Below, piece after piece: positions 4,567-64,000 of a DNA stretch of 64,000 nt. How positions within the stretch are numbered: the stretch's first letter is position 1; the number at the start of each line of letters is the position of its first letter. Source of the DNA: a virus (taxonomy: Duplodnaviria > Heunggongvirae > Uroviricota > Caudoviricetes); the IMG/VR virus record IMGVR_UViG_3300028797_000106; one strand, given 5' to 3'. The position numbers were made by a program, and so were the translations under genes. The notes beneath the pieces are model-generated. The model had not been told where the DNA came from, made no database searches, and was given only the letters and a program-made list of their open reading frames with translations.

Positions 4567-4577
4567 TAGGTAATGAC

Positions 4578-4886
4578 ATGAATACAAAGTTCAGGCAACT
4601 AACAGACGCAGTAAACGATCTTCGCTTGGGAGACATCGGATATGGCGACGAAAAGACATGGGACGAATCCCCATGTGGTCGCTACTTAAAGATGCAACTT
4701 CAGTTAGACATTGATGAAGGGAACTACCAAGAATACTCTATCATACGTCTTGACGATGTGATAGACGGTGCGGAGTTCAACTTTGAGATAACTGAAGGTC
4801 GTGAACTCACACAAGAGGAACGCGATGTATGGTATGACTGGGCTTTGTCTTGTCCTGTCAAAGCCTTCAAGCTGGAAAGAGAATAG
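4578..4886 (+). CDS. hypothetical protein
   Basis: 102 aa ORF. Confidence 0.45.
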   Translation: MNTKFRQLTDAVNDLRLGDIGYGDEKTWDESPCGRYLKMQLQLDIDEGNYQEYSIIRLDDVIDGAEFNFEITEGRELTQEERDVWYDWALSCPVKAFKLERE

Positions 4887-4936
4887 AAACCTCACGGATT
4901 TTATTTTGTTTTCAACTATTGCCAGTTCGGCAAAAA

Positions 4937-4966
4937 GTTATTAAATTTTAATCATAATCAAACAAC
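4937..4966 (+). promoter_or_regulatory. Conserved upstream motif TTAAATTTtaatCATAATCAAA; second copy of the box at 1281-1310
   Basis: Near-identical 22-nt sequence sits 30-60 nt upstream of the start codons at 1318 and 4999. Confidence 0.4.
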
Positions 4967-4998
4967 ACAACAGCCAAATAACCGAATAAGGAAAAACT

Positions 4999-6207: not shown

Positions 6208-6477
6208 TCTAAGGATTTTCAAAGGGAAGGAAAAATATATAAAAAACAACGAAAAGATGGATACTGCAAACAACCACTTCTTAATGACACATGGGTACAT
6301 ACCATCGCCGCAAGGCCGCTCGACCGTATATTGCGTGAAATACGGCAAGCCGTTTGCCGGGTAGATACGGCTTCCATCTTGTGTTGCTTTTTGATTTTAC
6401 ATATTCTCTAAAGATTCATACAGCAAGGTATGATCTTTCGCACAAAGGAAAAAACGAATCTTGTAAGGAGAAACATT

Positions 6478-8019
6478 ATGATTAACTTCTATGATGAAGT
6501 GAAGAAGGTGCTCGACGATCGTCGTGCAATGACAGAAAACGGTGCCGTTGGTTATGCAACCACAGGAAAGGCACTTTTGGACATGAATTTCAAGGTCCCA
6601 TCTTACCGCAACGCATCGGAAGATGAAATTGTTTCAGATTTTATTAAGGCTTACGCCGAAGATCCTACATTAGCCATCAAGTGGATGTTCTATGTAGGCG
6701 ACATCCGTCAGGGATTGGGTGAACGCCGTTTGTTCCGTATCTTGATGAAGCATGTGATGGCTCAGAACCCTGGGTTCATCCGTTTCGTCGGCGAATATAA
6801 CCGCTTTGACTCACTCTTTGAACTCTTCGGAACAGAAGCTGAAGAAGAAATGGTCAACTTTGTGTTGAAGCAGTTGACTAAGGACATGATTGCGACACAC
6901 GAAAACAAGCCATGTTCTTTGTTGGCTAAGTGGATGCCAAGTATCAACACATCTTCAAAGAAGACCCGTGAATTGGCAAAGAAGTTCATCAAGGAAATGA
7001 ACATCTCAGACGGCGAATACCGTAAGATGTTGTCCAAGCTCCGTGCTAACATCGATGTCACAGAACGCAAGTTGTGTGCCGGTGAATGGGACAAGGTGAA
7101 CTACAACACAGTGCCTTCTAAGGCTAACCTCAAGTATAACAATGCCTTCTTGGCACACGATGAAGCACGCCGTCGTGAATTCTTGGGTAAGTTGGCAAAG
7201 GGCGACAAGGATGTAAAGATTAACGCAGGTGCGGTCTTCCCTCACGACATCGTGGTCAAGTACCGTGAACCTGGTTGGTCTAGCCACTTGAAGGACTTTG
7301 ACGGAACACTTGAAGCAATGTGGAAGGCTTTGCCTAACACACTTGGTGATAAGCCAATGATTGTGGTCCGTGACGGTTCTGGCTCCATGACTGTGACAGT
7401 GCAGCGTGGTGGACAAGTTCAGGCTTTGGATGTGGCTACTGCCCTCGCTATCTACTGTGCAGAAAGACTGCCAGCAGGTTTCAAGGACAAGTTCATCACA
7501 TTCTCTGAACAGCCAAAGTTGGTTAACCTTGCCAATGTGAACAGCCTGCGTGATAAGCTCCGTGTGGCATACAACGAAGCAGAATGTGCCAACACAAACA
7601 TTGAAGCGGTGTTTGATTTGATTCTTAAGACTGCAGTGCAGGGCGGCTTGAAGCAGAATGATATTCCGGACATCCTGATTATCTCCGACATGGAATTTGA
7701 CGGATGTGCTTGTGATAACTCACATGCTCGCGGCTCTTGGGGTCGTGGCCTCAGCCCAACTTTGTTCCAAGTAATTGGACAGAAGTATGCAGCTCATGGC
7801 TACAAGTTGCCTAAGATGATCTTCTGGAATGTGAACTCCAGAACAAACACAATTCCTGTAAAGGAAAATGACAAGGGCGTTGTCCTGATGTCAGGTTTCT
7901 CTCAGAATACTGTGAAGATGGCGATGAGCAACAAGCTTGACCCATATCAGGCTCTGAAGGAAACACTCAACGTCAACCGTTATGCCTTCGTTGAAGACGT
8001 AATGATGGCGGGTGAATAA
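6478..8019 (+). CDS. von Willebrand factor A (vWA/MIDAS) domain protein, Ro60/DUF2828-like
   Basis: MIDAS-like DGSGSMT motif in the C-terminal half. ATG at 6478 with aaggagaaacatt RBS. Lies directly downstream of the AAA+ ATPase. Confidence 0.6.
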   Translation: MINFYDEVKKVLDDRRAMTENGAVGYATTGKALLDMNFKVPSYRNASEDEIVSDFIKAYAEDPTLAIKWMFYVGDIRQGLGERRLFRILMKHVMAQNPGFIRFVGEYNRFDSLFELFGTEAEEEMVNFVLKQLTKDMIATHENKPCSLLAKWMPSINTSSKKTRELAKKFIKEMNISDGEYRKMLSKLRANIDVTERKLCAGEWDKVNYNTVPSKANLKYNNAFLAHDEARRREFLGKLAKGDKDVKINAGAVFPHDIVVKYREPGWSSHLKDFDGTLEAMWKALPNTLGDKPMIVVRDGSGSMTVTVQRGGQVQALDVATALAIYCAERLPAGFKDKFITFSEQPKLVNLANVNSLRDKLRVAYNEAECANTNIEAVFDLILKTAVQGGLKQNDIPDILIISDMEFDGCACDNSHARGSWGRGLSPTLFQVIGQKYAAHGYKLPKMIFWNVNSRTNTIPVKENDKGVVLMSGFSQNTVKMAMSNKLDPYQALKETLNVNRYAFVEDVMMAGE

Positions 8020-8026
8020 ATAAACA

Positions 8027-8062
8027 AACCGGGAGGGATGCTTCCCCTCCCGATTTACTTTT
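8027..8062 (+). terminator. Rho-independent terminator
   Basis: cgggaggg-loop-ccctcccg hairpin followed by atttactttttt. Confidence 0.6.
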
Positions 8063-8129
8063 TTACCGAATGGGAAAGAGGTTTCGTGATGAAGCGTTTG
8101 TGTTACGTTTGAACACAAAGGATGTAAAA

Positions 8130-8639
8130 ATGCAAAGACATGATGAAGATGAACAGCTATCATTTAGCGACATTGTAGACGATTTTCAGAAGGGCGCTGA
8201 ATTGCTTTTCGGCAAGAACCGCAAGGAACTTGCTAAGACAGCACAGGCAGCAGTTGAACTCTGCCAGTCCGCTTTGGACGCAGACGCCAATATCCCGTTG
8301 AATGTGTTCTTGAATGCTGATGGCTCTAAGACTTGGGAACTCGCTATCCCGGGTAAGACAAAGGAAAATGTGACTATCTCGCAGGGTACGAAAAACGGCC
8401 AGCGTGTTATCACAGTGGAAGTCAAGGCAACTGAATTGACAGATGAACAGAAGAAGGAACTTGAAGGACGCACACTGATCCTTCAGAAGATTAAGGGTAT
8501 GAACGGAATCAAGTTCTCCGCCTTCGTTCCGGCCATCTTTGATTTGGACAACCTGAAGGCTAAGGTTGAAAACGGTCTTTTGACTGTCACCGTGCCGAAG
8601 GTGCCTGAAGAACAGCCTCGCACATTCACGGTTGAATAA
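8130..8639 (+). CDS. Small heat shock protein (Hsp20/alpha-crystallin family)
   Basis: C-terminal AKVENGLLTVTVPK, classic Hsp20 signature. ATG at 8130 lies downstream of the terminator. Confidence 0.7.
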   Translation: MQRHDEDEQLSFSDIVDDFQKGAELLFGKNRKELAKTAQAAVELCQSALDADANIPLNVFLNADGSKTWELAIPGKTKENVTISQGTKNGQRVITVEVKATELTDEQKKELEGRTLILQKIKGMNGIKFSAFVPAIFDLDNLKAKVENGLLTVTVPKVPEEQPRTFTVE

Positions 8640-9129: not shown

Positions 9130-9717
9130 ATGGCAGACGAGAAGAAAAAATTCAAAAAGTGGTATGATGATGCGGTCATGAACATGGCTGCACAGATGGC
9201 TCAGTACTGCAAGAAGAGTACTGACAACATGCTCAAGCGTCAAGCCGAGGAAAGAGAATCAGAATGGGAAGCTGCTGAACGAGACCGCCGAATAATGGAT
9301 AAGACAAAGCAGTTCTTTGATGAGAAGTGCTTCCCAGGTCTACAGAATGAAGGCTATAAGCTTGCCGTTGAACCAGCATCCGCAATTCAGCATGTACCGC
9401 CTAACATCCGTATCATCTGTAATTTTGGTGCTAAGACATGGAAAGATGGACGAGCACGCATTGACGAAAACAACGGTGAGTTTATCATTCAAGAATATGT
9501 AAATATGCCGTATGCCTTTACGGCACGAGGCGTTGTAGGTCAATCTTGGAATACGGTTAAGACGATTAAGTTCGTCAAGCCAACGGCATCGGGTTCATGG
9601 GATGATTTCAACAAAGCCATGAATGAATGCAATGAGTTTACAAAACAACGAATTAAGGAAGCTAAGATTGCTGCCTTGAAGGCTGAAAGAGAAAAGGGTT
9701 TATCAGATGAAGTATGA
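9130..9717 (+). CDS. hypothetical protein
   Basis: 195 aa ORF. Confidence 0.5.
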   Translation: MADEKKKFKKWYDDAVMNMAAQMAQYCKKSTDNMLKRQAEERESEWEAAERDRRIMDKTKQFFDEKCFPGLQNEGYKLAVEPASAIQHVPPNIRIICNFGAKTWKDGRARIDENNGEFIIQEYVNMPYAFTARGVVGQSWNTVKTIKFVKPTASGSWDDFNKAMNECNEFTKQRIKEAKIAALKAEREKGLSDEV

Positions 9718-10387
9718 TGTGATTGTTTCTTTGACAACATGGAAGGGCAGGATAAATGATCCTCGCTTACCTAAGGTTATTTTCAGACTGTTGCAGCAAG
9801 AAACCAAATTCAAGTATAAGGTCGTTCTTGTTCTTAGCCGCGAGGAGTTCGGCGACAATTATGAAGTGCCTGAACGAATTGCTTTGATGACTGAAGATGA
9901 ACGCTTTGAAATTCTTTGGACTGACAAGAATACAAAAGCATTGAAGAAACTTGACCCGACGATGGAGAAATATCCTGACACACCGATCATAACAACAGAC
10001 GATGACATATTGTTGAAGAAGCACGCTGTAGATATGATGATACAGGCCCACCAAATGCATCCTGAGGCCATCTTGGGGACTGTTTGTGGCGCATTTTATC
10101 CACCTATCTGCAGGGTTGGAAATCTTCGTTTATTTCCTCCTCACTCCCTTGCGGATTTACCAACTGAATACTTCTCAACCTATTTTCAGAACTTACATGA
10201 TGATGAATGGAATGGTATCCGCGCGATGGTCAAAGGCACTAAGATGCTGAAGGTTGCCGATAAGCTCATTGAAAACATTTCATATTACGGACAAGACAAT
10301 TCTTTCCGCAAAGAATACAACAAGTTCAGGTTCAAACCTGCATACGATAAGTTTAAGAAAGAACATCCAGAATATAACCTAAAGTAG
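9707..10387 (+). CDS. Putative glycosyltransferase, GT25-like (LPS glycosyltransferase family)
   Basis: N-terminal VIVSLTTWKGRI resembles the GT25 VISLxSAxERRxHI motif. Candidate DxD at ITTDDDILL. Paralog of 13211-13903 and 14811-15644. Confidence 0.45.
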   Translation: MKYDVIVSLTTWKGRINDPRLPKVIFRLLQQETKFKYKVVLVLSREEFGDNYEVPERIALMTEDERFEILWTDKNTKALKKLDPTMEKYPDTPIITTDDDILLKKHAVDMMIQAHQMHPEAILGTVCGAFYPPICRVGNLRLFPPHSLADLPTEYFSTYFQNLHDDEWNGIRAMVKGTKMLKVADKLIENISYYGQDNSFRKEYNKFRFKPAYDKFKKEHPEYNLK

Positions 10388-16535: not shown

Positions 16536-16898
16536 TAAGTGATTGTGTGCCCTGTGTTCTGCGATGTCGTGAATTCTTTTGCCGATTTCTTTGACCTTCT
16601 CAACCGGCACATCTTTATCCAGTTCTTCTGTATAGTTAGCACCTGAATTCATTCCCTTGATGAAAACGACGATCTTGCCTTTGTCATAATCATACTCGAT
16701 ATTAGCGAGTGTCTGATTATGGTTCATCAGCCTTACCCAATATGCAGAGCCAGGCATCTTGCTGAAAACGATTTCATCGCCGCTGACAAAGCCACAGCAA
16801 TTTGAAAGATCTTCAATGAATTCATCTAAGCCGGTTGCTGACCATTCACATATCAGTCCGGCTTTGCCTAATTCTTTAAATGCTTCGTGTAATTCCAT
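16533..16898 (-). CDS. hypothetical protein (shares N-terminal L.KAGLI.E motif family)
   Basis: 121 aa; N-terminus MELHEAFKELGKAGLICE. Confidence 0.5.
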   Translation of the reverse strand: MELHEAFKELGKAGLICEWSATGLDEFIEDLSNCCGFVSGDEIVFSKMPGSAYWVRLMNHNQTLANIEYDYDKGKIVVFIKGMNSGANYTEELDKDVPVEKVKEIGKRIHDIAEHRAHNHL

Positions 16899-17069
16899 TA
16901 CTTACTCCGTAAAGCATTGGCGAACTTATGTAATGAAACGCAAAAGTCGCCGTGCTTCAAATTTTTGCATTCCTTAACTTCTATCAGTTGTTCAATGTTT
17001 TGAACTTCTGGATAGTCTTTCTTAAGTACTGCAACTAGCTGTTCTTTAATTATTTCTTTGTAGTTCATG
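16896..17069 (-). CDS. hypothetical small protein (57 aa)
   Basis: Minus-strand ORF MNYKEIIKEQLVAVLKKDYPEVQNIEQLIEVKECKNLKHGDFCVSLHKFANALRSK; stop overlaps the start of 16533-16898 (TAATG). Confidence 0.3.
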
Positions 17070-17114
17070 TTCTATTTATTCTTGTTTTTCTTCCATTCAT
17101 TATATTCTTGAAAA

Positions 17115-18023
17115 TCAAACAAATTCAGGTATGTAGGTTTTATACCAATAGAAGACAATTTCATATTTCTTTGCCGCGCCTTGTGCAACCAAAGTAAAGC
17201 TATTTTCACCATCCAAATTATTGTCTTTAAGTAATAGGTTTGCGTCAGATTCACGAGCATCATTTCCTTGCTTAAGCGTGATTACGGAACCTTGTTTTGC
17301 TGAAATGTTCTGTGCTGGAATTTCATTATTTAGAATTGTCACAGTTTCAGGAAATGTCATTTTAATCTGATAAAATACATCAGCTGAAAGATTATAGTCA
17401 ATGTCAAATCTTACGCCATCAATCGTTGTATGTTTCTTACCAGCTTTTGCTGAGAAACACATATAGTGTGCATTGAAATCGGTCCAAATTTGTAATATGA
17501 AATCAGGTGCAGCAATGTGAAGCTCAGATTCTTGCATGATATCACGACTGATTTGAATACCGCCGCTTATTGAAAAATACTGTTCGTATTTTGACCCTTT
17601 GACTTTTATACCATTTCCAAAAGCATCACCGCCGATGTATAAATGGTCAAGCGCATCATTTGGATATTCCTGTAGAAGTAATACTTGCAATACTTCTGAG
17701 TTTTCATCATTAACCAAAAATATAGCGTGCTCATCAAATGAATATGCATTAGGAAATACACGAATTATGTCATTTGCTATAACAGCGGCCTGTTGTGCAG
17801 GTATTGTTTCTAAAGTGCTTAAACGAGATTGAATGTTTGTAAGTGAACTCTCAAGCGCAGATAGACGAGGTTCACATTCACATTCTTTAATGATTGTTGT
17901 GGTACTTCCTGTGTTAGATGATGAAGATGAGCTGCTTGAACTCTGACTAGGCATTGAGGTAGAAGGTGTGTATGAATATGTATATGTTGACCCTGATTTA
18001 GGTCTTGCATTTAGACGACGCAT
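17115..18023 (-). CDS. hypothetical protein with Ser/Thr-rich N-terminal region
   Basis: 302 aa; poly-Ser tract SSSSSSSSSNTGSTTT followed by a short coiled segment and a beta-rich C-terminus. Confidence 0.5.
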   Translation of the reverse strand: MRRLNARPKSGSTYTYSYTPSTSMPSQSSSSSSSSSNTGSTTTIIKECECEPRLSALESSLTNIQSRLSTLETIPAQQAAVIANDIIRVFPNAYSFDEHAIFLVNDENSEVLQVLLLQEYPNDALDHLYIGGDAFGNGIKVKGSKYEQYFSISGGIQISRDIMQESELHIAAPDFILQIWTDFNAHYMCFSAKAGKKHTTIDGVRFDIDYNLSADVFYQIKMTFPETVTILNNEIPAQNISAKQGSVITLKQGNDARESDANLLLKDNNLDGENSFTLVAQGAAKKYEIVFYWYKTYIPEFV

Positions 18024-18043
18024 AATTTACCTCCCCTTTTTAT

Positions 18044-18781
18044 TTACGGATTGAACTGATACCATGTTTCAAAGTAGTCAGGTTCATTTCTGGTGTATTG
18101 CATATACACGCCCAAGATTGACCTGCCCATCAGCTGAGAATGATGCAACATATACCAAATCACTTCCGCAACTTCATACGGGCTGATTGGACTGTCGCCG
18201 CCTTCTTCCAATACTTCAGCGATTTGCGGTTCAAATTCAGCGACATGCTTTTCTGCGTATGAACGGCCAGCGTCATCGCTGTCATAGCAGTTATCGTAAA
18301 TCTGAGCGAGCTTCTTTGTTACGATTTCACGGTAGTTGTCGGTGCTTTCGTTGACTGATTCGCTCTGAATTGCCTTGACCTTTTTCATGTAAGCATGCAA
18401 CTGAGTTAAGCTAAATGCTATCTGAACAAAGCCGCCGTTGTTATTTCTGATAATGCGCCAAGGATAGCTGTTTCCTCTCCAATAGAAAGCACCGTGTCTA
18501 CGGAACTGGACTTCCCATGTAGCATTTTCCATCACAATTTCAAATTGCTGTGTGACGCCCTTGTCATCAGGGTCTACTTCATAGTAGTTTTTTACAGGTC
18601 TAACTTTCTCAATCTCTTCAACGATTTCTTCAACGATTGCTTCGTTGCTATTTGCAGCAATTCGTGCAAGAGCATCTTCAGTTGTTTCCTCAGCAATAAG
18701 ACCTGCTTTATTCAAAATCTGTTGTGCCTCAGAAAGCTCCATGTAAACCTCCAGAATAATTTTTAGTTGACCTGCCGTCAA
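18044..18781 (-). CDS. hypothetical protein (N-terminal LNKAGLIAEE motif family)
   Basis: 245 aa. Confidence 0.5.
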   Translation of the reverse strand: MTAGQLKIILEVYMELSEAQQILNKAGLIAEETTEDALARIAANSNEAIVEEIVEEIEKVRPVKNYYEVDPDDKGVTQQFEIVMENATWEVQFRRHGAFYWRGNSYPWRIIRNNNGGFVQIAFSLTQLHAYMKKVKAIQSESVNESTDNYREIVTKKLAQIYDNCYDSDDAGRSYAEKHVAEFEPQIAEVLEEGGDSPISPYEVAEVIWYMLHHSQLMGRSILGVYMQYTRNEPDYFETWYQFNP

Positions 18782-18826
18782 CCTATGAAAAATTTTTTAT
18801 ATTTTATTTATTCAAGGAGTAGACTT

Positions 18827-19204
18827 ATGCACTATAACATTGTCAAAATTGGAAAGGACGAAGGCCCTAGAGAAGTGCTTTGGACAGGAACCAACGAGGA
18901 AGATGCCTATCATGAGTTCGCCCGCATACTGATGAAAGAGTATGGTAAAGATTATTGCTTTGACATTAAGCACATTGAAGATGTCTCATTGCTTTATGAT
19001 ATGTTCATTATTGACAAGGATCATCACGGCGTCATTGAAATGAAAGACTATTTTCGTGTAGTTCGTCGTTCTTGCCGTAAATTCGCAAAATGGCACGGAG
19101 ATCCTAAGCATATCTTCTATGTTCATTGGTATAAAGACTTTGACGAGAACCGTCACTGGCATGAGTCGCTTTCAATTCAGACAGAGGACGATGATGCGGA
19201 ATAG
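18827..19204 (+). CDS. hypothetical protein
   Basis: aaggag RBS then ATG at 18827. Confidence 0.5.
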   Translation: MHYNIVKIGKDEGPREVLWTGTNEEDAYHEFARILMKEYGKDYCFDIKHIEDVSLLYDMFIIDKDHHGVIEMKDYFRVVRRSCRKFAKWHGDPKHIFYVHWYKDFDENRHWHESLSIQTEDDDAE

Positions 19205-19424
19205 ATTCGTATTGAAATGCAATGATTGGGAAGATCATAACAACCCAGTTTACGTCAAACATGTTGATTGGGAAAAAGACTGTTTATTTGGCTATGACGT
19301 AACTGAGGACATAACAAAAGCACAAAGATTTTCACAGAAAATGGCTTATAGGATGTCCGATGAAATTTACGATTCTTACTGTGATGATTTTGAGGTTATA
19401 AATACTTCGTATGAAGCAGATTAA
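19191..19424 (+). CDS. hypothetical protein
   Basis: Internal ATG minimising overlap with the previous gene. Confidence 0.4.
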   Translation: MMRNRFVLKCNDWEDHNNPVYVKHVDWEKDCLFGYDVTEDITKAQRFSQKMAYRMSDEIYDSYCDDFEVINTSYEAD

Positions 19425-20541
19425 CCGTTTTTGGAATGTTGCGGTACCGGGTATCGCCATTCCTACATGTATCGGTTCCGTCTATTGCTGGTCTCAGTTC
19501 TCAGCTGCACTTGCTGCAACATTCGGAATCTCTATTTTCGCAACCAACATCGGTTTCACCTTAATCATTTTCTTCCTTGGTGTCTTTGCGGCACTGTTTG
19601 GAAGGACGATTGAGGTCAACCCTAAGATTGGTGCCATTCTTTCAACCATCATTTTTGTTTCAGGCTTCTTGCTGTTGGGCCTTTCGGTCTATACAGGCTG
19701 CCTTCCGCTCTTTTACGCAGCGACTGCGACGATTGGCGCGGGCACAGGAATAGGATATGTCACACCGATTAAGACCTTGATGGCGTATTTTGCAGATCAT
19801 AAGGGTCTCGCAAGCGGTTTGGCTATCACAGGGTTCGGGCTGGCTAAGTTTATTGCCTCTCCGGCTATCGCTTTTTTGATTGCTGCTGTTCCTTTACATC
19901 AGGTTTTCATAATTCTTGGGCTCGTTTATGCAGTCATCATGACCATTTCAACGGTCTTGCTAAAGAAATATGATTTTGGACCTGAAATCCAGCACCCATT
20001 CAAGTATGGCGACATATTGAAGAGCAAAGAATGGTGGGCAATTTGGTTTATGTTCATGGTGAACATATCTTGTGGCCTATCTATCATCGCTCAGGAAGCA
20101 GCATTGCTTGGAATTATGGGCATTCCGTTCATCGCAGGCATTCTAGCGATGACAGCACTTGCCAATTCAGGTGGTCGCCTTGGTTTTTCAACATTGTCAG
20201 ATAAGATTGGCAGAAAGGCATCATACCATTTCGTTTGTTCATTTGGAATGCTCGGTGCTTTATTCTGTATCACGGGCAACCCTATCATGGCAGTAATCGG
20301 TATCTTCCTTTGTGAAGCAGCATACGGCGGAAATTTCTCTTGTTTGCCATCCTTGCTCGCAAAACGCTTTGGAATTTACAATTCTAGCAAGGTTCATGCT
20401 ATGACATTGACTGGCTGGAGCATTGGAGGCATCTTCGGACCGCTTCTAGCTGCGACATTTGTCGGCACCAACCTTTATATTGTGCTTGCTATCCTTTATT
20501 TCATTGCATTTACGGTAATGGAAATTTTCGTTCGGAAATAA
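19411..20541 (+). CDS. Major facilitator superfamily (MFS) transporter
   Basis: 376 aa, about 12 hydrophobic segments; MFS motif A-like GRLGFSTLSDKIGRK. Confidence 0.65.
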   Translation: MKQINRFWNVAVPGIAIPTCIGSVYCWSQFSAALAATFGISIFATNIGFTLIIFFLGVFAALFGRTIEVNPKIGAILSTIIFVSGFLLLGLSVYTGCLPLFYAATATIGAGTGIGYVTPIKTLMAYFADHKGLASGLAITGFGLAKFIASPAIAFLIAAVPLHQVFIILGLVYAVIMTISTVLLKKYDFGPEIQHPFKYGDILKSKEWWAIWFMFMVNISCGLSIIAQEAALLGIMGIPFIAGILAMTALANSGGRLGFSTLSDKIGRKASYHFVCSFGMLGALFCITGNPIMAVIGIFLCEAAYGGNFSCLPSLLAKRFGIYNSSKVHAMTLTGWSIGGIFGPLLAATFVGTNLYIVLAILYFIAFTVMEIFVRK

Positions 20542-26008: not shown

Positions 26009-26020
26009 GGAAAATTGAAA

Positions 26021-26449
26021 ATGAAGACACTTTACATCGTAAGAGGACCTGCGGGTTCTGGAAAGTCAACCTACTGCCGCAATGTGCTGCTTCCCAAGAT
26101 CTTTGAGGAAACAGGTGCGAAGATTGAAAACCGTGAAAATGATGCCTTCTTCACTGACGCTTGTGGAAACTACAATTGGGATCCCAAGAAGATGTGGCTC
26201 GCTATCAAGATCTGTCGCGGACAGGTTCAGCGTGACTTGGAGAAGTATGGCGTTGCCGTTGTTTCCAACACCTTCATTGACATGAGTTCTATGAAGGACT
26301 ACTTCAAGCTCGCGGAAGACATGGGCGCTGAGGTCAAGGTAATCCGAATGGGTAACTGGTATGGTTCAATTCATGGTGTTCCTGAGGACAAGATTCAACA
26401 GATGAAGGACAACATGGTTGATGTGCCGGGCGAGGAAATTGTAAAGTAA
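26021..26449 (+). CDS. Polynucleotide 5'-kinase (T4 Pnk kinase-domain-like P-loop kinase)
   Basis: LYIVRGPAGSGKST Walker A comparable to T4 Pnk ILTIGCPGSGKST; about 142 aa. Confidence 0.6.
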   Translation: MKTLYIVRGPAGSGKSTYCRNVLLPKIFEETGAKIENRENDAFFTDACGNYNWDPKKMWLAIKICRGQVQRDLEKYGVAVVSNTFIDMSSMKDYFKLAEDMGAEVKVIRMGNWYGSIHGVPEDKIQQMKDNMVDVPGEEIVK

Positions 26450-26457
26450 GGTAACTT

Positions 26458-26910
26458 ATGACAAAACAACAACATGCAAAGAAGCTTTATTGGGACTTGA
26501 TTAGAAAGGCGATTGCCCGTGAAAATGGACCAGGAAAATTGACAAAGAAAGACTTCGTGGAATATCATCATGCTATTCCGAAGTACTTGTTGAAGGACAA
26601 AGGACCTGTCCCATATAATGAAGTCGCATTAAGACCTCGTGAGCATGTTCTTGCGCATAAGTTGCTTGTCCGTGCTGGGATTGAAACGGTTCCTACATTC
26701 AAGAACAGCAAGAATACTGTTTATCTGGCTGCTATTCGGACGATGAATAAGAAGGGCGGTTGGTCAACCATCTTCGGAAAGGAACAGAAGGCAGTTGATA
26801 ACATTATGGGCATTCTTGGCTCAATGGGATTTGATAAAGAAAAAGGCAAAAAGATTGTTAAGAAATTATTAGAAGAAGGAATTTTACATGTTGATAAGAA
26901 ACGACTCTAA
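26458..26910 (+). CDS. HNH endonuclease-like protein (possible homing endonuclease)
   Basis: EYHHAIPKYL ... NEVALRPREHVLAHK His-rich HNH-like spacing; inserted between the kinase and phosphatase genes. Confidence 0.45.
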   Translation: MTKQQHAKKLYWDLIRKAIARENGPGKLTKKDFVEYHHAIPKYLLKDKGPVPYNEVALRPREHVLAHKLLVRAGIETVPTFKNSKNTVYLAAIRTMNKKGGWSTIFGKEQKAVDNIMGILGSMGFDKEKGKKIVKKLLEEGILHVDKKRL

Positions 26911-27664
26911 CACGCTGAAGGTTGCTGACGATAAGCGTCTTTGGTTTGTGTCAGACTTGCATCTGAACCACAAGAAGTTGTGTCATTCTTATCCAGATCA
27001 TTTTGAACAGACTCGCAAGTATGCAACTGTTGAGGAAATGAACGAGGATCTTATCAAGAATTGGAACGAAACCGTCGGAAAGGACGATGTCGTGATTTTC
27101 TTGGGTGATTTTTCCTTGGGAACCCCTCATGCACAACTTGCTCAGTTGTTCTTAACCACAATGGATAAGTTGAACGGACAGATTTATTGTATCCTGGGAA
27201 ACCACGATTATGAATTAAGAAGAAGACTTGAAAAGATAGGAGAAGACTCGGTCTTTGTTAAGTACTTGGTGATTGATTACAAGGGCAGACAGTACCTTGC
27301 ACAACATCATGACTTTGATGAAGTCAGGGAAAACGCATTTGACGCATTTGCTCATCACTTGTTTACTTATGATAAGGAACTTGTGTTTGTTCACGGACAT
27401 ACACATTCTACTCGTCAGATTTCAACATTCAACGAAAACTCCTGCATTCAGAACTGTGTATGCGTGGATATAAGATATGCTCCTATTCCGGCAAATCTTC
27501 TTCTGGGAAACAGTATAGATATTGAAAACACAAACATATCTGTAGAAGTGTTGGACTCAACAACCGCACAGAGTGAATTAGAAGAAGATGTGCTGCATCA
27601 TTGCTTTGAGGAAGGAGAAATAAATGGAGAAGTGGCTGGACAAGGTAATAAACAAGATAGCTGA
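26888..27664 (+). CDS. Calcineurin-like metallophosphoesterase (polynucleotide 3'-phosphatase candidate)
   Basis: Motifs WFVSDLHLNH, FLGDF, GNHD, HGHTH. Confidence 0.7.
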   Translation: MLIRNDSNTLKVADDKRLWFVSDLHLNHKKLCHSYPDHFEQTRKYATVEEMNEDLIKNWNETVGKDDVVIFLGDFSLGTPHAQLAQLFLTTMDKLNGQIYCILGNHDYELRRRLEKIGEDSVFVKYLVIDYKGRQYLAQHHDFDEVRENAFDAFAHHLFTYDKELVFVHGHTHSTRQISTFNENSCIQNCVCVDIRYAPIPANLLLGNSIDIENTNISVEVLDSTTAQSELEEDVLHHCFEEGEINGEVAGQGNKQDS

Positions 27665-27779
27665 CGCTTTTGGCGCCGACCCGATAACCGTGGTGACGCG
27701 GATTTTTGAAGGAGGCGTAATTGCCGGCATCCTGCTTTTCTTCGTTTTGATTTTCAGACTTTTCATTTAAGAGGTTTAT

Positions 27780-28142
27780 ATGAGCCGTTCATACCGTAAA
27801 GTTTCTAAGACTCCCGTTTGCTGCGTTGGACAGCGCGGCATCAAGGAATGGAAGCGCTACTCCGCAAAGCAGCGCCGCACCCACGAAAAGCAGCAGATGC
27901 TTGGCATTCATGAAGATGAAGAAGGATGGGACGAAGAAACATGCTTTGAAATCAAGTACCAAAAGGAAAGAAACACCAATGACTGGACTGGCCCGCATGA
28001 CGGCTGGAACACCATCGGTCCAAAGACCTGTGAACGCTGCATTGAGGAAAACCTCAAAGATTTTGAAGAAAACGGCCCGAACGGATTTTTCCATACCAAA
28101 CACGATATTGAAAAGTACCGTTGGCACTGCTTTGACAAATAA
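27780..28142 (+). CDS. hypothetical protein
   Basis: 120 aa, several Cys/His (CC...C..C...H..C). Confidence 0.45.
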   Translation: MSRSYRKVSKTPVCCVGQRGIKEWKRYSAKQRRTHEKQQMLGIHEDEEGWDEETCFEIKYQKERNTNDWTGPHDGWNTIGPKTCERCIEENLKDFEENGPNGFFHTKHDIEKYRWHCFDK

Positions 28143-28265
28143 GTATGCCGCAGAGTAATGAAGCTTTATTGGAATTAATGAACACTATATGGAAAGAACT
28201 TGAAAAACAACAAGACGCAAAGGAAAACCTCTGCGCCACAAAAACAACAGAAGAGGACAACTACG

Positions 28266-29408
28266 ATGTATTTGCCTAAGTTAGAAGATTACATGGAGAA
28301 GTTAGAAGAAAACGAAATCTTCTCCTGCGAAGACGAACATTTCATTGGGTTCAAGTATAATGCACCCACCACATACTTCCACTACTGGAATGATGTGACG
28401 CTGAATGCTCGCGGTATTGTCTTTGACAAGCAGACTGGTGAAATCGTTGCTCGTCCTTTCTACAAGTTCTTCAACTACCAGGAACTTATCAACGGTGAAG
28501 GACAGAGAACCGACATCCTAGATAAGGTTGAAGCATGCGGTTGGCGTCTTGACGCAACACAGTCTTTCCGTGTCATGGACAAGTTGGACGGTTCCTTGGG
28601 AATCGTCTTCTATGACAAGTATGCAGATAAGTGGCGTGTAAAGACAGGTGGTTCCTTCTCCTCTGACCAAGCAGTCTGGGGACAGAAGTGGTTTGACGAA
28701 AATGTGAACCTTTCTGAACTTGTGAAGGGATTTACTTACTGCTTTGAAATTATCTACAACGAAGATGTTCACCCAATCTCTTACGAAAAGGAAGAAATGG
28801 TATTGCTTGGCATCTGTGAAAACCAGACAGGTGTTGAATTGACTTTATCAGCTCTTCAAGACGCAGGAAAGGCATTGGGCGTTCGTGTTGCAGACATCAT
28901 CGAGTTCAAGAACTTTGATGAAGTTCTCCCTTATGCAACAAACCTTCCAAACACAAAGGAAGGCGTTGTGGTGACCTTCAAGAATGGGTTCAAGGTAAAG
29001 ATTAAGGGCAAGGAATTTTTGGAACTTCAAAGAAAGTTCCATAACATGACCGAAGACTTTATCTGGCAGAACTTTGACATCCACACTGGCAAGGTCCCAT
29101 TAGATATCATGGAAGCAATTCCTGAAGAAATGCCCGACTTAAAGCGCTATGCTGAAAACTTGGAAACAAGATACTTCGGCGGATGTGGAATGTCCTTCAC
29201 ACTGGCACATATCATGCGTGAAACCCACCAGGGCGACCGTCGCAAGATTTATGAAGAAGTGTCAAAGGGCATGGAAGCTATGCACATGAAGGGATTAACA
29301 GCAGCAGTAATGCGCTGTGTCACATTATTAGAACATGGAGAAACTCTTACTGACGAAACTTTGCCGGACTCCGTTCGCGAAATTGTCTACAAGACATTAA
29401 AGCCATAG
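28266..29408 (+). CDS. RNA ligase, Rnl1 family
   Basis: Motif I KLDGSL (T4 Rnl1 KEDGSL). RGIVFD...VARPFYKFFN matches T4 Rnl1 RGIMFE...IASRPMEKFFN. ATG at 28266; the ORF-track start at 28200 is TTG. Confidence 0.75.
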   Translation: MYLPKLEDYMEKLEENEIFSCEDEHFIGFKYNAPTTYFHYWNDVTLNARGIVFDKQTGEIVARPFYKFFNYQELINGEGQRTDILDKVEACGWRLDATQSFRVMDKLDGSLGIVFYDKYADKWRVKTGGSFSSDQAVWGQKWFDENVNLSELVKGFTYCFEIIYNEDVHPISYEKEEMVLLGICENQTGVELTLSALQDAGKALGVRVADIIEFKNFDEVLPYATNLPNTKEGVVVTFKNGFKVKIKGKEFLELQRKFHNMTEDFIWQNFDIHTGKVPLDIMEAIPEEMPDLKRYAENLETRYFGGCGMSFTLAHIMRETHQGDRRKIYEEVSKGMEAMHMKGLTAAVMRCVTLLEHGETLTDETLPDSVREIVYKTLKP

Positions 29409-58788: not shown

Positions 58789-58806
58789 TCTTCGGAAAAT
58801 TTTTAA

Positions 58807-58835
58807 GCCGGTCCGCGAGGGCCGGTTTTCTTTGT
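58807..58835 (+). terminator. Intrinsic terminator followed by TTAAATTTG box
   Basis: gccggtcc-gcga-gggccggt hairpin then tttctttgttaaatttg; preceded by ggaaaattttt. Confidence 0.55.
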
Positions 58836-60437: not shown

Positions 60438-61181
60438 ATGAAAATTTGTGGACTTGACCTTTCTTATACTTCGCCCGGTATCTGCATTGAAGAACTTGAT
60501 GATAATCTCGATGTGATATCTTGCGAAGGCTATGGTTTTTCAATTCCTAAGTATGCTGGCGGGAACATCGTAGAATACCGCGGTAAGAAAGATTTCCCTG
60601 ATGATTATGCCAGATTTGAATTCTTGCAGGACCACATTCTTAAGTGGGTTCAGGATTGTGAATATGTTTTCGTTGAAGACTACGCAATTAACGCAAGCGG
60701 CTTGGTCTTTGACCTAGCTGAATTTGAAGGCTACATCAAGCAAGCTCTTTACCGTTCTGGAAAGACTTTGCGATTCTATTCGCCGACTACAAACAAGAAA
60801 TTTTATGCAGCATACGGCGGTGCTGACAAGATCTCAATGTATCAGGCTTTCAATGCCTTTACTGGTAAGAAGCCTAACATTTCAAATTTGCCGGTCGTGA
60901 ACAAAGGCGACGGCGTGAAACCAACATCGGATATTATTGACGCCCACGCCCTCTGCGAAATGGGTAGACAAGAACTTCGTCTTCGCAGAAAAATTGACAA
61001 ACTTGAAGATCTTCCTTCTCATGTTCAGGAGGTCTTTGCCCTCAAACAAGAGAAATCACTGAAGAAAATTGAAAAGAAGATTGCCAAAGGAACTGCAAAG
61101 AAACACGAAAAGGTCACGCTTGGCATTACAGAAACGCCGATGATTGGCAAGAACCTCTCAGATTTGGATAGAGGTGTCTAA
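60438..61181 (+). CDS. RuvC-like Holliday junction resolvase
   Basis: MKICGLDLSYTSPGICI N-terminal catalytic Asp context, VEDYA, IIDAHALCEMG resemble RuvC motifs. Confidence 0.6.
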   Translation: MKICGLDLSYTSPGICIEELDDNLDVISCEGYGFSIPKYAGGNIVEYRGKKDFPDDYARFEFLQDHILKWVQDCEYVFVEDYAINASGLVFDLAEFEGYIKQALYRSGKTLRFYSPTTNKKFYAAYGGADKISMYQAFNAFTGKKPNISNLPVVNKGDGVKPTSDIIDAHALCEMGRQELRLRRKIDKLEDLPSHVQEVFALKQEKSLKKIEKKIAKGTAKKHEKVTLGITETPMIGKNLSDLDRGV

Positions 61182-61711
61182 TGTCAATGTTCGGTGCTGA
61201 TTTTGCGACGGGTGAGTTCATTCCAAGATACCCCGGCAAGTGTCTGAACAAAAACGGCAAAATGCCTGGGGTTCATAGCAAGATTACTTTCCGCTCCAGC
61301 TGGGAGTCAATCTTTGCGAACTGGTGTGACATTGAAGACAATGTAATCGAGTGGGGATCTGAATGTATTGAAATCCCTTACTTCTCGCAGATTGACAACA
61401 GGAAACATAAGTATGTCACTGACTTTATTGTCTTGACGAGGAATAAACACACCGGCAAGATTGAAAAGTGGCTCGTGGAAGTCAAGCCTGCATGTCAGGT
61501 ACCGCAGCTTAATGAATGCGGCGCCATCATCTTTCCAGAGCTGAATAAGAAGAAAAAGTTGACACAAAAGAGAATTGATGCGTGGCAGGAACGCTGTAAT
61601 GTACTACGCAGAAATCACGAAAAATGGACAGAAGCTAGGAAATGGGCTAGCCTGCACGGATATGTCTTCAAGATTATCACCCAGGAAGAGCTTGGCTTAC
61701 TCGCGGAATAA
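61181..61711 (+). CDS. hypothetical protein
   Basis: 176 aa; TAATG overlap. Confidence 0.5.
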   Translation: MSMFGADFATGEFIPRYPGKCLNKNGKMPGVHSKITFRSSWESIFANWCDIEDNVIEWGSECIEIPYFSQIDNRKHKYVTDFIVLTRNKHTGKIEKWLVEVKPACQVPQLNECGAIIFPELNKKKKLTQKRIDAWQERCNVLRRNHEKWTEARKWASLHGYVFKIITQEELGLLAE

Positions 61712-61723: not shown

Positions 61724-63178
61724 TTGGAGAATTTTAGCATGAAGTCAGATTTTCAGAAATTTCTTACAGAAGGCACAATGCCCAGCACAGGCAACATTGT
61801 GGTATTCTATGGCAGATATAACCCACCACATGTAGGGCACTTGGGCGTTGTGAAGAAACTCGCTGCGATGGCTAAGGAACAAGGCGGCGAAGCAATTATT
61901 TCACTTTCTGGCTCAGAAGACCCTGAAAAGAACCCGCTTACATTTGAAAAGAAGCGTCATTATGTTGAACTGATGTGTAAGCCTTATGGCGTCACAGTTG
62001 ATGACAAGCCTTGTAATAAGGTCTATGATCTTATCCGTGACTGCGCATTCCTTTCACAGAAGCGCGGCGGCGGCACCGTAACATTGCTTGCTGGTTCTGA
62101 CCGCGTCCCTGCATATCAGGGTTTCGCAAAATCACTTCTGAAGAAATATCAAGGCCGTGGTGAAATTCTCGATGTAAATGTTGTTGTTCAGGAAGCAATG
62201 GCTCGTGATTCGGCAGAAGCATTCTCAGCATCACAGATGCGTGCTTTCATTAAGAATGGCGACATTGAAGGCTTCGTTGAGCATGCTCCGTTTGACAACA
62301 AGGAAGAAGCTGAACAGATGTATCATGACTGCGCTAAGGGCATGAACATTGAAGAACATGCTTATCAGCCAGTTTTGGGTAAGTTGCTCGGTGAAGCACA
62401 CATTTCCCACGATGCAAGCGATGTAAGAGCTGCAGCAATGGAAATGGGTAAGGAAGTTTCCGAACACATCAATGAGCTGACCGGAGAACCTGACCATTTG
62501 TGGTTTATCGGCGGTTGTGTTCGTGATGAAGTTTTGGGCAAGACACCGAACGATTTTGACCTTATCACGACAATGTATTACAAGACCTATGCCGAACTGT
62601 TCAACACAAAGGACATTCGTTTCAGAGGTAAGCAGATCATCGTTGTGCCGATTGTGGCAGGTGAAGAATTTGAAACTGCTTGCTTGCATAAGGGAGAAAA
62701 GATTGAAGACAACCTTCAGTTCCGCGATTTGACAATGAATGCTATGGCTCAGGACCTAGCTACTGGAAAGATTGTTGACCCGTGCGGTGGCTTGAAGGAT
62801 ATGAAGATGAAGAAGCTCAACCTAACGAATTTCATGAAGGAAGCGATGGCAGCAGGCGGTCAGCCGGTTGCAGTTCTTCGTGCCATTCGTTTCTACTCAA
62901 CATACGGTTGGGACTTCACCGCTGACTCGCTAGAGACATTGAAGAAATTTAGCGAAGTAAACAAGGGCGTGCTTAAGGTGACACCTCGTCAGTTTGACAA
63001 GGACTGGCAGAAACTTATTAAGGGTTCAAATGTTCAGGGCGCCTTAGATTTGATTGTGGAACTTGGCTTCCATGATTACCTAATGAAATCACAGCCGCTT
63101 TACGCTGAATACCGCAATAAGGATGCTGAAGAAAAACCAGAGGCAGAAGAACCAGTTGAAGGAGCTGAAGAAGAATAA
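61724..63178 (+). CDS. Fusion protein: NadM-type NMN adenylyltransferase-like domain plus CCA/poly(A)-polymerase-type nucleotidyltransferase domain
   Basis: N-terminal VVFYGRYNPPHVGHLGVVKKLA (archaeal NadM GRFQPFHKGHL type). C-terminal WFIGGCVRDEVLGKTPNDFDLITT (class II CCA head-domain GGxVRDxLLG...DxD). Confidence 0.55.
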   Translation: MENFSMKSDFQKFLTEGTMPSTGNIVVFYGRYNPPHVGHLGVVKKLAAMAKEQGGEAIISLSGSEDPEKNPLTFEKKRHYVELMCKPYGVTVDDKPCNKVYDLIRDCAFLSQKRGGGTVTLLAGSDRVPAYQGFAKSLLKKYQGRGEILDVNVVVQEAMARDSAEAFSASQMRAFIKNGDIEGFVEHAPFDNKEEAEQMYHDCAKGMNIEEHAYQPVLGKLLGEAHISHDASDVRAAAMEMGKEVSEHINELTGEPDHLWFIGGCVRDEVLGKTPNDFDLITTMYYKTYAELFNTKDIRFRGKQIIVVPIVAGEEFETACLHKGEKIEDNLQFRDLTMNAMAQDLATGKIVDPCGGLKDMKMKKLNLTNFMKEAMAAGGQPVAVLRAIRFYSTYGWDFTADSLETLKKFSEVNKGVLKVTPRQFDKDWQKLIKGSNVQGALDLIVELGFHDYLMKSQPLYAEYRNKDAEEKPEAEEPVEGAEEE

Positions 63179-64000
63179 TGAAAAGCGCATTTGATTTGCT
63201 AGCAGAAGGTAAAGCAGATCTTATGCTGCATCTTCTGGAGATTGCATCAAAGGGGAAAAACCTGTCAACCAAAATTGACGGTGCCCCTGCTGTTGTAATG
63301 TGGTCAGAATTCCCTGGGCTAAAAGGACCCGGGGTTTCCTTTAAGCTGATTATTCAGCAGACACAGAAAGGCACACCCGGTGCTTACTTCACTTCTGACG
63401 AAGAGATTGATAAGTTCTTCGCAGAAAAGGATATGGAAGAAGGACCGAAGAGACACCGTATTGCATCATTTAAGAATGCTTTGAAGCTCGCCCGCACAGT
63501 TAAGCCAGGAACCATGGTTTGGGGCGATGTATTCTATGGTGAGCCTTCTGAATTAACAGAGGTTGATGGACAACCAGCCTGCACCCCAAACACGCTAGAA
63601 TATGTGTTTACGAACCCACAATGGGTTGAACAGATTGAAAGATCCAACTTCGGTATCTTCGTTCATACGAAGGTCTCTAAGAATTTTGACATCAGTAGAA
63701 TAAGCGATGCAAGCACTTTGCTTGATAAATCGGCAGCCTTTGTCCTTGACCCGAATGATATTGAGCCGAAGATGAAGAACTTCAACGGACCGGCTATAGG
63801 CCAGATCCGAGCACGCATTAACTCATTGCAGTCTTTGAAGGATCCGAAATTCCAGAAGTTGATGCGTAAGGCATTTAAGACAAAGGACTTCTCAATCCTC
63901 GGACCAGACAGCGATAACATCGCAGATCTTTGCCGTTTGATTGGTGAATGCTTGAATGACATCACTGACCAAATCGGTCTTGCCGGTTTCTATACACGAC
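63178..64000 (+). CDS. Putative ATP-dependent nucleic-acid ligase (partial, runs off window end)
   Basis: ATG at 63178; KIDGAP resembles ligase motif I KxDG; open to the window end. Confidence 0.4.
   Translation, partial: MKSAFDLLAEGKADLMLHLLEIASKGKNLSTKIDGAPAVVMWSEFPGLKGPGVSFKLIIQQTQKGTPGAYFTSDEEIDKFFAEKDMEEGPKRHRIASFKNALKLARTVKPGTMVWGDVFYGEPSELTEVDGQPACTPNTLEYVFTNPQWVEQIERSNFGIFVHTKVSKNFDISRISDASTLLDKSAAFVLDPNDIEPKMKNFNGPAIGQIRARINSLQSLKDPKFQKLMRKAFKTKDFSILGPDSDNIADLCRLIGECLNDITDQIGLAGFYTR

Follow-up and report, generated by a model that had tools for sequence, protein, structure and literature searches.

At the end of a 64,000-nucleotide (nt) stretch of the IMG/VR virus record IMGVR_UViG_3300028797_000106 (Caudoviricetes), hereafter the window, lies a gene that joins two nucleotidyltransferase domains in one protein and overlaps a gene of the DUF6267 family. 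The open reading frame (ORF) listed here, 61724-63178 on the plus strand, begins with a TTG that is merely the start of the longest frame; the ATG at 61739 is the likelier start and is preceded at a distance of 8 nt by GGAG (61727-61730). Close homologues of 473-481 amino acids (aa) open with MKSDF, MQSDF or MLSDF, and because all of them begin at the position of this ATG we take the product to be 479 aa long. Its stop codon (63176-63178) overlaps the start codon of the DUF6267 gene in the sequence TAATG (63176-63180), and the two genes are translationally coupled. The features of the locus are as follows.

61739-63178, plus strand: fusion gene, 479 aa; HIGH-type nucleotidyltransferase followed by a class II Pol-beta nucleotidyltransferase head and neck
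61796-62350, plus strand: N-terminal domain, aa 20-204; phage HIGH-nucleotidyltransferase family phrog_3041, with a fold like that of nicotinamide mononucleotide adenylyltransferases (NMNATs)
61811-61840, plus strand: GRYNPPHVGH, the (H/T)xGH motif for nucleoside triphosphate (NTP) binding, aa 25-34; G25, P29 and H34 invariant, H31 nearly so
61919-61939, plus strand: DPEKNPL; N65-P66-L67 invariant; aligned with the KNPFSFEQR loop of Francisella NadM (2QJT)
62093-62104, plus strand: GSDR, a family-specific third motif; G119, D121 and R122 invariant
62225-62242, plus strand: SASQMR, aa 163-168, the SxxxxR motif of HIGH nucleotidyltransferases; S163, M167 and R168 invariant
62351-62413, plus strand: inter-domain linker, aa 205-225; variable in length and sequence, with a predicted local distance difference test score (pLDDT) below 50 at aa 206-222
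62414-63130, plus strand: C-terminal domain, aa 226-464; class II (CCA/poly(A)-polymerase type) head and neck only
62510-62560, plus strand: motif A, GGCVRDEVLGKTPNDFD, aa 258-274; G258, G259, R262, D263, D272 and D274 invariant, of which D272 and D274 are the metal carboxylates
62654-62686, plus strand: VAGEEFETACL strand; E309 and E312 invariant, E312 being the third carboxylate, aligned with the Glu of YEVTTF in 1MIV
62717-62743, plus strand: QFRDLTMNA, equivalent of motif B (canonically RRDFTxNA); D330, L331, T332 and N334 invariant
62777-62800, plus strand: motif C, DPCGGLKD; D347, P348, G351 and D354 invariant
62849-62896, plus strand: degenerate motif D, AAGGQPVAVLRAIRFY; the LRAxRF helix is retained, with R381, R384 and F385 invariant
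63131-63175, plus strand: acidic C-terminal tail, EKPEAEEPVEGAEEE; low confidence in the model and not conserved
63178-64000, plus strand: DUF6267 (PF19782) partner gene, cut by the end of the window; motifs KxDG, then GD, GIxxHT, EGxV and K

A conserved two-domain fusion

Both domains are recognised by family profiles. Residues 22-83 match the Pfam model CTP_transf_like (PF01467; 23.8 bits against a cut-off of 21, E 5e-5) and residues 254-360 match the PolyA_pol head (PF01743; 68.3 bits against 23, E 1e-18) over profile positions 1-125 of 126. Among PHROG families, phrog_3041 ('cytidyltransferase') is matched over its full length by aa 15-208 (E 4.4e-29), and phrog_2244 ('tRNA nucleotidyltransferase') also matches the fusion (E 2e-27). 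An AlphaFold2 model built on 19 homologues (mean pLDDT 84) consists of two well-folded halves with a disordered linker, aa 206-222, between them. Searched against the Protein Data Bank (PDB) with Foldseek, the C-half retrieves class II CCA-adding enzymes and poly(A) polymerases (E 1e-13, ~245 columns) and the N-half retrieves NadD/NMNAT structures (E 8e-5 to 1e-3, TM-score normalised to the target 0.5-0.63). The first-pass annotation had read the gene as a NadM-type domain joined to a CCA/poly(A)-type domain in a non-standard architecture. The joining is real and well past anything expected by chance: both motifs lie where that annotation placed them, Pfam and PHROG cut-offs are passed, the structure prediction for the full protein gives two folded domains and a linker, and homologues keep both domains.

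Errors of assembly or frameshift do not account for the fusion, because the identical protein is present on four contigs and two-domain, full-length homologues extend down to 42% identity. Among 5.8 billion proteins searched, about 20 clusters match the fusion along its entire length at 42-97% identity; every one is metagenomic and none is named. IMG/VR contributes three further fusion loci. None of the 50,697 GenBank phage records searched carries the architecture at ≥80% protein coverage, the 718 phage matches there each falling on one half or the other, and no relative of the fusion was found in 185,579 species-representative bacterial and archaeal genomes. In a full-text search of the literature no paper was found to describe a fusion of this kind; two comparative reviews covering RNA-repair and NAD systems in phages name CCA-adding enzymes, NadM and NadR solely as separate proteins. 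The description of the architecture as non-standard is thus upheld, and the fusion is a conserved family seen only in uncultivated phages.

Conservation was read from an alignment of 19 full-length fusion members (42-97% identity). Residues that are invariant or nearly so include G25, P29, H34, N65-P66-L67, G119, D121, R122, S163, M167 and R168 in the N-half, and G258, G259, R262, D263, D272, D274, E309, E312, D330, T332, N334, D347, P348, G351, D354, R381, R384 and F385 in the C-half. The linker and the acidic tail vary. Since both motif sets are conserved while linker and tail are not, both enzymes appear to have been selected to stay active.

When 1.84 billion representatives were searched exhaustively with the N-half, variant architectures came to light. 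They include a 416-aa fusion of ~33% identity (P0087) and a fusion extended by a 540-aa tail of no recognised identity (P0083). Other relatives (P0088, 691 aa; P0122, 1004 aa; L022, 6001-8076) place the N-domain before two tandem class II heads, both of which lack the EDxxR motif, a layout that recalls the split CC-adding and A-adding enzymes, here in one chain. The C-terminal tails of P0083, P0085 and P0117 had no match in the comparison set.

The two halves and their nearest relatives

The N-half shows several features of NadM, namely GRxxPxHxGH, a KNPLTFEKK loop and SASQMR, the counterpart of which in NMNAT and phosphopantetheine adenylyltransferase is ISxTxxR. A profile alignment with 2QJT sets GRFQPFHKGH...KNPFSFEQR of the solved enzyme on GRFNPPTxGH...KNPLSFEQK of the family. 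The best solved sequence relatives of this half of the fusion profile are NadM (E 2.5e-5) and MJ0541 (E 3e-4), the NadM/NadD sequence matches together spanning E 2.5e-5 to 1e-3, and the best PDB fold matches are NadD structures. More broadly, NMNATs (NadM 1F9A and 2QJT; NadD 1K4K and 3MLA; NadR) have in common with the N-half the GRxxPxHxGH motif, the KNP(L/F)(S/T)F loop, SxxxxR and a length of ~190 aa, and the family is fused to a second enzyme just as NadM is to Nudix and as in NadR. Unlike NMNATs, it has its own invariant GSDR, and the fusion has no Nudix or RNK partner.

These likenesses do not make the N-half a NadM. Its sequence alignments with NadM and NadD are limited to the first 60-70 residues, and the NCBIfam NadM/NMNAT models reach 13-18 bits against cut-offs of 112-449 (TIGR01527, 12.9 against 181; NF002243, 16 against 127; PRK05379, 18.4 against 403), with approximately the first 50-90 residues aligned. 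When the broader family profile is used, the top PDB match is the TmcAL-like MJ0951 (E 4e-5) and NMNATs drop to ~1e-3. Because FAD synthetase and TmcAL also stand among the Foldseek matches, the likeness in fold is one of superfamily level, not specific to NMNATs. Membership of the NadM family is rejected on scores that fall below the NCBIfam cut-offs; of the earlier 'NadM-type' label, the GRxxPxHxGH and SxxxxR motifs and the NMNAT-like fold stand and the family assignment does not. Glycerol-3-phosphate cytidylyltransferase, which the first-pass annotation had given as an example of the generic enzymes that would count against its view of this domain, is rejected as well: no GCT, CCT or ECT model or structure is among the sequence or fold matches, the best of which are nicotinamide mononucleotide (NMN) and nicotinic acid mononucleotide (NaMN) adenylyltransferases.

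The N-half belongs instead to a large family of phage proteins, of which 2,227 representatives match at E ≤ 1e-3 and which has the consensus FGRxNPPTxGH...KKNPL...GSDRV...SASKMR, in which TxGH takes the place of HxGH. Members labelled 'cytidyltransferase' occur in cyanomyoviruses, pelagiphage HTVC008M, Rak2-like jumbo phages, PA5oct-like phages and Cr30, and a hidden Markov model (HMM) of the domain matches the S-RIM2, HTVC008M, SHEFM2K, phage 30-3 and Cr30 proteins end to end (E 1e-16 to 1e-26). The name derives from Pfam PF01467 and from no assay, as a cyanophage study makes explicit; in S-SZBM1, the 'cytidylyltransferase' gp140 and the hypothetical protein listed adjacently, gp139, were detected in purified virions (PMC9146016). 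In the phages of phrog_3041 the domain stands alone (~180 aa) or with DUF5824, P-loop kinases or unrecognised regions, and never with a class II head as it does here. Among 80 long N-domain members, the partners are DUF5824 (12), Zeta_toxin and AAA_33 kinases (8 and 7) and PolyA_pol heads (5), and more rarely DUF6267 (3), HNH (2), PUA (1) and KH (1); these partners, DUF5824 apart, also point toward nucleic acids.

The profile of the C-half aligns with residues 20-224 of the 404-residue Bacillus stearothermophilus CCA enzyme 1MIV (E 8e-21), and it shares with class II CCA-, CC- and A-adding enzymes and PcnB (1MIV, 6QY6, 3AQL, 4WBY) the Pol-beta head GGxxRD...DxD with its third carboxylate, the motif B sequence DLTxNA, the motif C sequence DPxGGxxD and the LRAxRF neck helix. 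Motif A, the third carboxylate E312, the motif-B Asp, motif C and the LRAxRF helix are all retained. The Pol-beta carboxylates D272, D274 and E312 are present and invariant; a lack of the catalytic aspartates was among the findings that the first-pass annotation had named as counting against it. The C-half is expected from its motifs to be a catalytically competent, template-independent nucleotidyltransferase.

Three elements of specificity found in canonical class II enzymes are nonetheless absent, as are the RNA-binding domains. The protein ends just past the neck, with no body and no tail, so that the C-half measures ~240 aa against ~400 in class II CCA enzymes; PF12627 and PF13735, the Pfam domains of the RNA-binding body and tail (PolyA_pol_RNAbd included), find no match in the fusion, unlike in canonical CCA homologues. 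In canonical class II enzymes EDxxR serves as a protein template for the choice of CTP and ATP, and those included in the alignment carry EDALR. At this position the fusion reads G374-Q375-P-V-A378, which varies within the family (Q/H/K/L; A/T/R). Compared with 1MIV and four canonical CCA enzymes, the fusion also lacks about 15 residues that precede motif B and follow the strand of the third carboxylate; this stretch corresponds to the flexible-loop region needed for the switch from C to A addition, the shortening of which distinguishes CC-adding enzymes. Next to the invariant motif-B Asp the family has R, S or G, where the canonical RRD has an Arg that reads the ribose 2'-OH.

The profile scores agree. 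On the fusion, NCBIfam CCA equivalogs reach 28-71 bits against cut-offs of 290-624, the best being NF009814 (71 against 290), and the PcnB model TIGR01942 reaches 55 against 306. Membership of the CCA equivalog families is rejected on these scores, and because it has no body or tail, no EDxxR and no flexible-loop segment, the C-half is not a canonical CCA-adding enzyme. What held of the earlier CCA/poly(A)-type assignment is the class II head with GGCVRD...DFD; the elements that would make it a CCA enzyme are missing. Canonical class II rules do not predict which nucleotide is added or to what acceptor. Unlike class II CCA enzymes and PcnB, moreover, this head is joined to a HIGH nucleotidyltransferase. 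Each half thus lies within a known superfamily and the protein is not categorically new, and its annotation as NadM or as a CCA-adding enzyme finds no support in the sequence. In the collections and literature searched, what appears undescribed is the architecture, the stripped class II head without EDxxR, the tandem-head variants and the obligatory partnership with DUF6267.

The DUF6267 partner and the surrounding genome

DUF6267 follows the fusion in eight of the nine lineages with readable downstream sequence (the L022 sequence stops at the fusion gene). Outside the window lineage these are:

L017, 86% identity to the window protein: fusion then DUF6267
L010, 57%: fusion then DUF6267
L012, 51%: fusion then DUF6267
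L004, 49%: fusion, two small ORFs, DUF6267
L011, 47%: fusion then DUF6267
L018, 46%: fusion then DUF6267
L023, 44%: fusion then DUF6267

The wider gene surroundings of these loci differ. No terminator was found between the fusion and DUF6267 in a scan for promoters and terminators, which showed no enrichment. The strongest terminator-like hairpin of the region (58805-58828; 10 bp, six G-C pairs and a T-run) follows a gene ending at 58788 and may mark the start of a transcription unit that includes the fusion. In L004 (a 239-kb contig; 9222-9992 and 16572-19485) an ADP-ribosylglycohydrolase gene lies immediately upstream of the fusion and flagellin-like genes lie ~5 kb downstream. In L018 (IMGVR_UViG_3300032030_000085, 5160-8462) the only interruptions of the fusion, DUF6267 and downstream 'domain X' genes are in-frame TAG codons, seven of which were counted, and for this reason we regard it as a TAG-recoded phage.

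The association of the N-domain with DUF6267 extends well beyond the fusion family. In phrog_455 and in P0117 the two are joined in a single protein, DUF6267 (complete in P0117, E 1e-42) being followed by a cytidylyltransferase-like (CT-like) domain. The DUF6267 HMM matches the ORF directly upstream of the S-RIM2 'cytidyltransferase' and the ORF two genes upstream of that of HTVC008M, and in S-RIM2, HTVC008M and Tara marine contigs the DUF6267 and N-domain genes are adjacent or within ~2.6 kb of each other. Tara and other marine contigs (L024-L027; also L008 and L009) present the order UvsX, gp41, an unnamed gene, DUF6267, a Zeta_toxin/AAA_33 kinase resembling polynucleotide kinase (PNK), and a CT-like domain with DUF5824. 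Because independent fusions and adjacency link the two in distant phages, N-domain and DUF6267 together make up the conserved core, to which the fusion clade has added the class II head.

DUF6267 itself comprises at least 7,637 clusters at E ≤ 1e-3, all unnamed. The full-length protein has 331 aa (in L001, the window lineage, and L006), and 125 sequences keep, in order, the near-invariant K32-x-D34-G35-A-P-A, G116-D117, P137-N-T..Y142, G159-I..H163-T, E283-G284-x-V286 and K295. Taken in order, they are reminiscent of motifs I, III, IV and V in covalent lysine nucleotidyltransferases (ligases and capping enzymes). The L004 copy has VHNS where others have KxDG. An AlphaFold2 model (pLDDT 82) gave no significant Foldseek match, the few weak ones including African swine fever virus DNA ligase and human capping enzyme; hhalign against T7 ligase set KIDG on KYDG and MVWGDV on MLDGEL, colinearly and without significance. 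The first-pass annotation had called the gene at 63178 ligase-like, and the KxDG motif and the tight linkage to the fusion are in keeping with this; the term is plausible, and we treat it as a lead, not a result. PDB sequence searches with DUF6267 and domain X gave no match, nor did tblastn of short and long forms of DUF6267 against GenBank phages, and the cyanophage and pelagiphage homologues were detected solely by our custom HMM. Cyanomyoviruses have no recognisable homologue of the gp30 DNA ligase (PMC2984593).

In the window lineage domain X is a separate, overlapping ORF of 469 aa (L001, 12432-13838, just past the end of the window); a ~430-aa region matching it is fused to DUF6267 in L011, L012, L004 and L023 (BLAST E 8e-61). 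It has no Pfam, PHROG or PDB sequence match. Its conserved YTTSK and GNxYGLGIYTT strands may resemble the HGS and GxGIYFA strands of PARP-type ADP-ribosyltransferases, with the His replaced, a likeness that is not used as evidence.

The phage that carries the gene is a deep-branching T4-like virus with gp32, UvsX, a DnaB-type helicase, RNase H and gp13, and with a DNA polymerase that is at best ~27% identical to those of GenBank phages. In its lineage the module is surrounded by DnaB, gp32, DHH, primase-like, RuvC-like and TnsA-like genes and then by PD-(D/E)XK and RNase H. Immediately before the fusion, the gene at 61181-61711 carries conflicting labels, the N-terminal domain of a TnsA-like endonuclease in Pfam (E 3e-17) and 'head closure' in PHROGs. 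Elsewhere in the window lie genes of NAD metabolism and RNA repair:

152-1234: adenylyltransferase-Nudix fusion, full-length phrog_395, with the motif YYGGAFDPFTNAH
1318-1908: isochorismatase/PncA-like gene of the NAD cluster
3790-4566: NAD synthase NadE of the NAD cluster
26015-29408: RNA-repair cassette of an AAA_33 (PNK-like) kinase, a 150-aa unnamed gene, a calcineurin-like phosphoesterase and a T4 Rnl1-type RNA ligase

The NAD salvage and synthesis cluster (152-4566) lies 57 kb from the fusion and has its own adenylyltransferase; because this enzyme, with its Nudix domain, stands beside the PncA-like gene and NadE, general NAD+ salvage is independent of the fusion. A paralogous relation between that enzyme and the fusion N-half was considered and rejected (BLAST E 0.11). 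The cassette, to which the first-pass annotation had tied the fusion, lies 33 kb away, and a link by proximity is rejected. The protein might couple NAD metabolism to RNA 3'-end repair, as that annotation proposed.

Further observations concern other parts of the window. An ATPase (phrog_2376) adjoins a 529-aa 'RNA-binding protein' (phrog_850, E 4.5e-119) at 4999-8019; the latter (6430-8019) reads as Ro60/TROVE-like, and the 433-nt gene-free gap at 4567-4998 could be the site of a Y-RNA-like partner. Rfam found nothing at its gathering thresholds, in this gap or elsewhere, and one chance-level match near the Ro60-like gene. A 376-aa product (19411-20541) matches MFS_1, a major facilitator transporter family that is unusual in a phage.

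Possible roles of the module

The reading that we favour, though with reserve, makes the fusion the bifunctional nucleotidyltransferase subunit of a conserved and hitherto undescribed phage module that would process nucleic-acid ends, most likely of RNA, together with the DUF6267 protein, with or without the ~450-aa domain X. The C-half would add untemplated nucleotides to a 3'-OH with a non-canonical choice of nucleotide and is not expected to make CCA as the canonical enzymes do, its substrate being held by partner domains in place of a body and tail. The N-half would transfer AMP (or another nucleoside monophosphate) from an NTP onto a phosphate acceptor in a pyrophosphate linkage, the acceptor being either NMN/NaMN, to yield local NAD for an NAD-using partner, or the terminal phosphate of a nucleic acid. 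DUF6267, with its KxDG...GD...EGxV...K series, might be a lysine-nucleotidyl enzyme and seal or cap this end.

To our knowledge all characterised class II enzymes act on RNA. RNA is favoured for this reason, because PUA and KH partners occur in the N-domain family, and because the phage is rich in RNA-repair genes, its investment in RNA repair and NAD extending to Rnl1, kinase, phosphatase, Ro60-like protein and the NAD cluster. Several points weigh against the proposal. The substrates of the N-half, the C-half and DUF6267 are candidates only, and we know of no HIGH-type nucleotidyltransferase that acts on polynucleotide ends. In the most distant lineage, L019 (32% identity), no DUF6267 was detected within 5 kb of the fusion. 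Against RNA in particular, genes of replication and recombination (RuvC-like, TnsA-like, PD-(D/E)XK, RNase H) surround the module in the window lineage, and the ribose-sensing Arg of motif B is not conserved. ARAGORN detected neither tRNA nor tmRNA genes in the window and seven related loci, and no Rfam RNAs were found in the window or related loci.

Comparable systems exist: RlaP-Rnl, T4 Pnk-Rnl1 and bacterial Pnkp-Hen1 likewise couple a ligase-type protein to a template-independent nucleotidyltransferase (PMC7824862), with a PNK-like kinase in the marine relatives of our module, and the arrangement suggests that broken ends are restored and then sealed. The differences are substantial. The nucleotidyltransferase here is a class II head in place of the RlaP of RlaP-Rnl pairs, and the ligase-like partner is DUF6267 in place of Rnl1, Rnl2 or RtcB. 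A HIGH-type adenylyltransferase is obligatory here and has no counterpart in those sets, and the module has no phosphoesterase, unlike kinase/phosphatase/ligase repair sets. A bolder version of this proposal, which we consider unlikely, makes the fusion the local form of a widespread, unrecognised phage 'heal-and-seal' system in which DUF6267, a family abundant in marine myoviruses, would be a new family of lysine-nucleotidyl ligases and would work with an NMNAT-like enzyme and a class II head. DUF6267 might then be the missing ligase of T4-like cyanophages, the NMNAT-like enzyme would supply or recycle an NAD-like cofactor or pre-activate the terminal phosphate, and the head would rebuild the 3' end through a new nucleotide pocket that is not of EDxxR type. 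Such a system would allow repair of phage or host nucleic acids to continue when host defences cut RNA or drain NAD+.

The first-pass view taken literally, a genuine NMN adenylyltransferase for NAD+ supply joined to a genuine tRNA CCA-adding or repair enzyme that would mend tRNA 3' ends damaged in the course of infection, each working independently, also seems unlikely to us. In its favour, NadM/NadD NMNATs and class II CCA-adding enzymes are the closest named relatives in sequence and fold, the catalytic core of each half is intact, the phage has an RNA-repair cassette and NAD genes, and CCA-adding enzymes are known accessories of phage RNA repair (PMC7824862). It must contend, however, with a C-half that has neither EDxxR nor the flexible-loop segment nor the tRNA-holding body and tail, with CCA and NadM/NMNAT scores far under the NCBIfam cut-offs, and with a phage that already has an adenylyltransferase-Nudix enzyme beside PncA-like and NadE genes. 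Two independent activities would also leave the strict linkage to DUF6267 unexplained.

Alternatively, and this we doubt rather strongly, the module might act on DNA ends. DUF6267 would be a phage DNA ligase, the NMNAT-like domain would remake NAD+ from the released NMN and ATP, and the head would be a DNA terminal transferase, so that sealing would survive depletion of host NAD+. The placement of the module fits, among replication and recombination genes in the window lineage and directly after UvsX and gp41 in marine myoviruses; the ligases among the weak structural matches of DUF6267 are DNA ligases; the motif-B Arg that senses the ribose 2'-OH is not conserved; and an NMNAT paired with an NAD-type ligase would be expected to close an NMN/NAD cycle. 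Against this, the characterised class II enzymes we know of all act on RNA, PUA and KH domains among the partners of the N-domain point the same way, and DUF6267 has no recognisable NAD-binding Ia or OB domain and a similarity to ligases that is not significant. Phage biology offers one argument on each side: cyanomyoviruses lack a gp30 ligase homologue yet have DUF6267 (PMC2984593), and the virion location of S-SZBM1 gp140 and its neighbour gp139 (PMC9146016) would, if gp139 is a DUF6267 homologue, be odd for a replication ligase.

The last alternative, that the fusion makes or remodels a nucleotide metabolite such as an NAD or ADP-ribose derivative or an oligonucleotide signal, perhaps as a counter-defence enzyme delivered with the virion like polyvalent proteins, is improbable. 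Some Zeta-toxin-type kinases, among them AvrRxo1, reportedly phosphorylate NAD, and we know of no class II head that makes small molecules. The idea draws on the N-domain fold, which is that of dinucleotide-forming enzymes, on fusions of the family to Zeta-toxin-type kinases, on the ADP-ribosylglycohydrolase directly upstream in L004 and on the cyanophage homologue found in virions (PMC9146016), but the ADP-ribosylglycohydrolase linkage occurs in one lineage only, a PARP-like view of domain X has no tool support, and the KxDG partner is left unexplained.

Returning to the end-processing module, if the two halves and DUF6267 do cooperate, they would constitute a new pathway built from a HIGH adenylyltransferase, a minimal class II head and a KxDG protein, which have never been seen together. 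Very large groups of marine phage proteins now called hypothetical would thereby gain a function, namely DUF6267 and the 'cytidylyltransferase' of cyanophages, which is at present listed as an auxiliary metabolic gene by analogy with teichoic-acid enzymes. A class II head without EDxxR or tRNA-binding domains would be a test case for alternative choices of nucleotide and substrate, and might be put to practical use as a compact terminal transferase. Above all, the finding brings to light a widespread, uncharacterised phage module that is open to testing at the bench.

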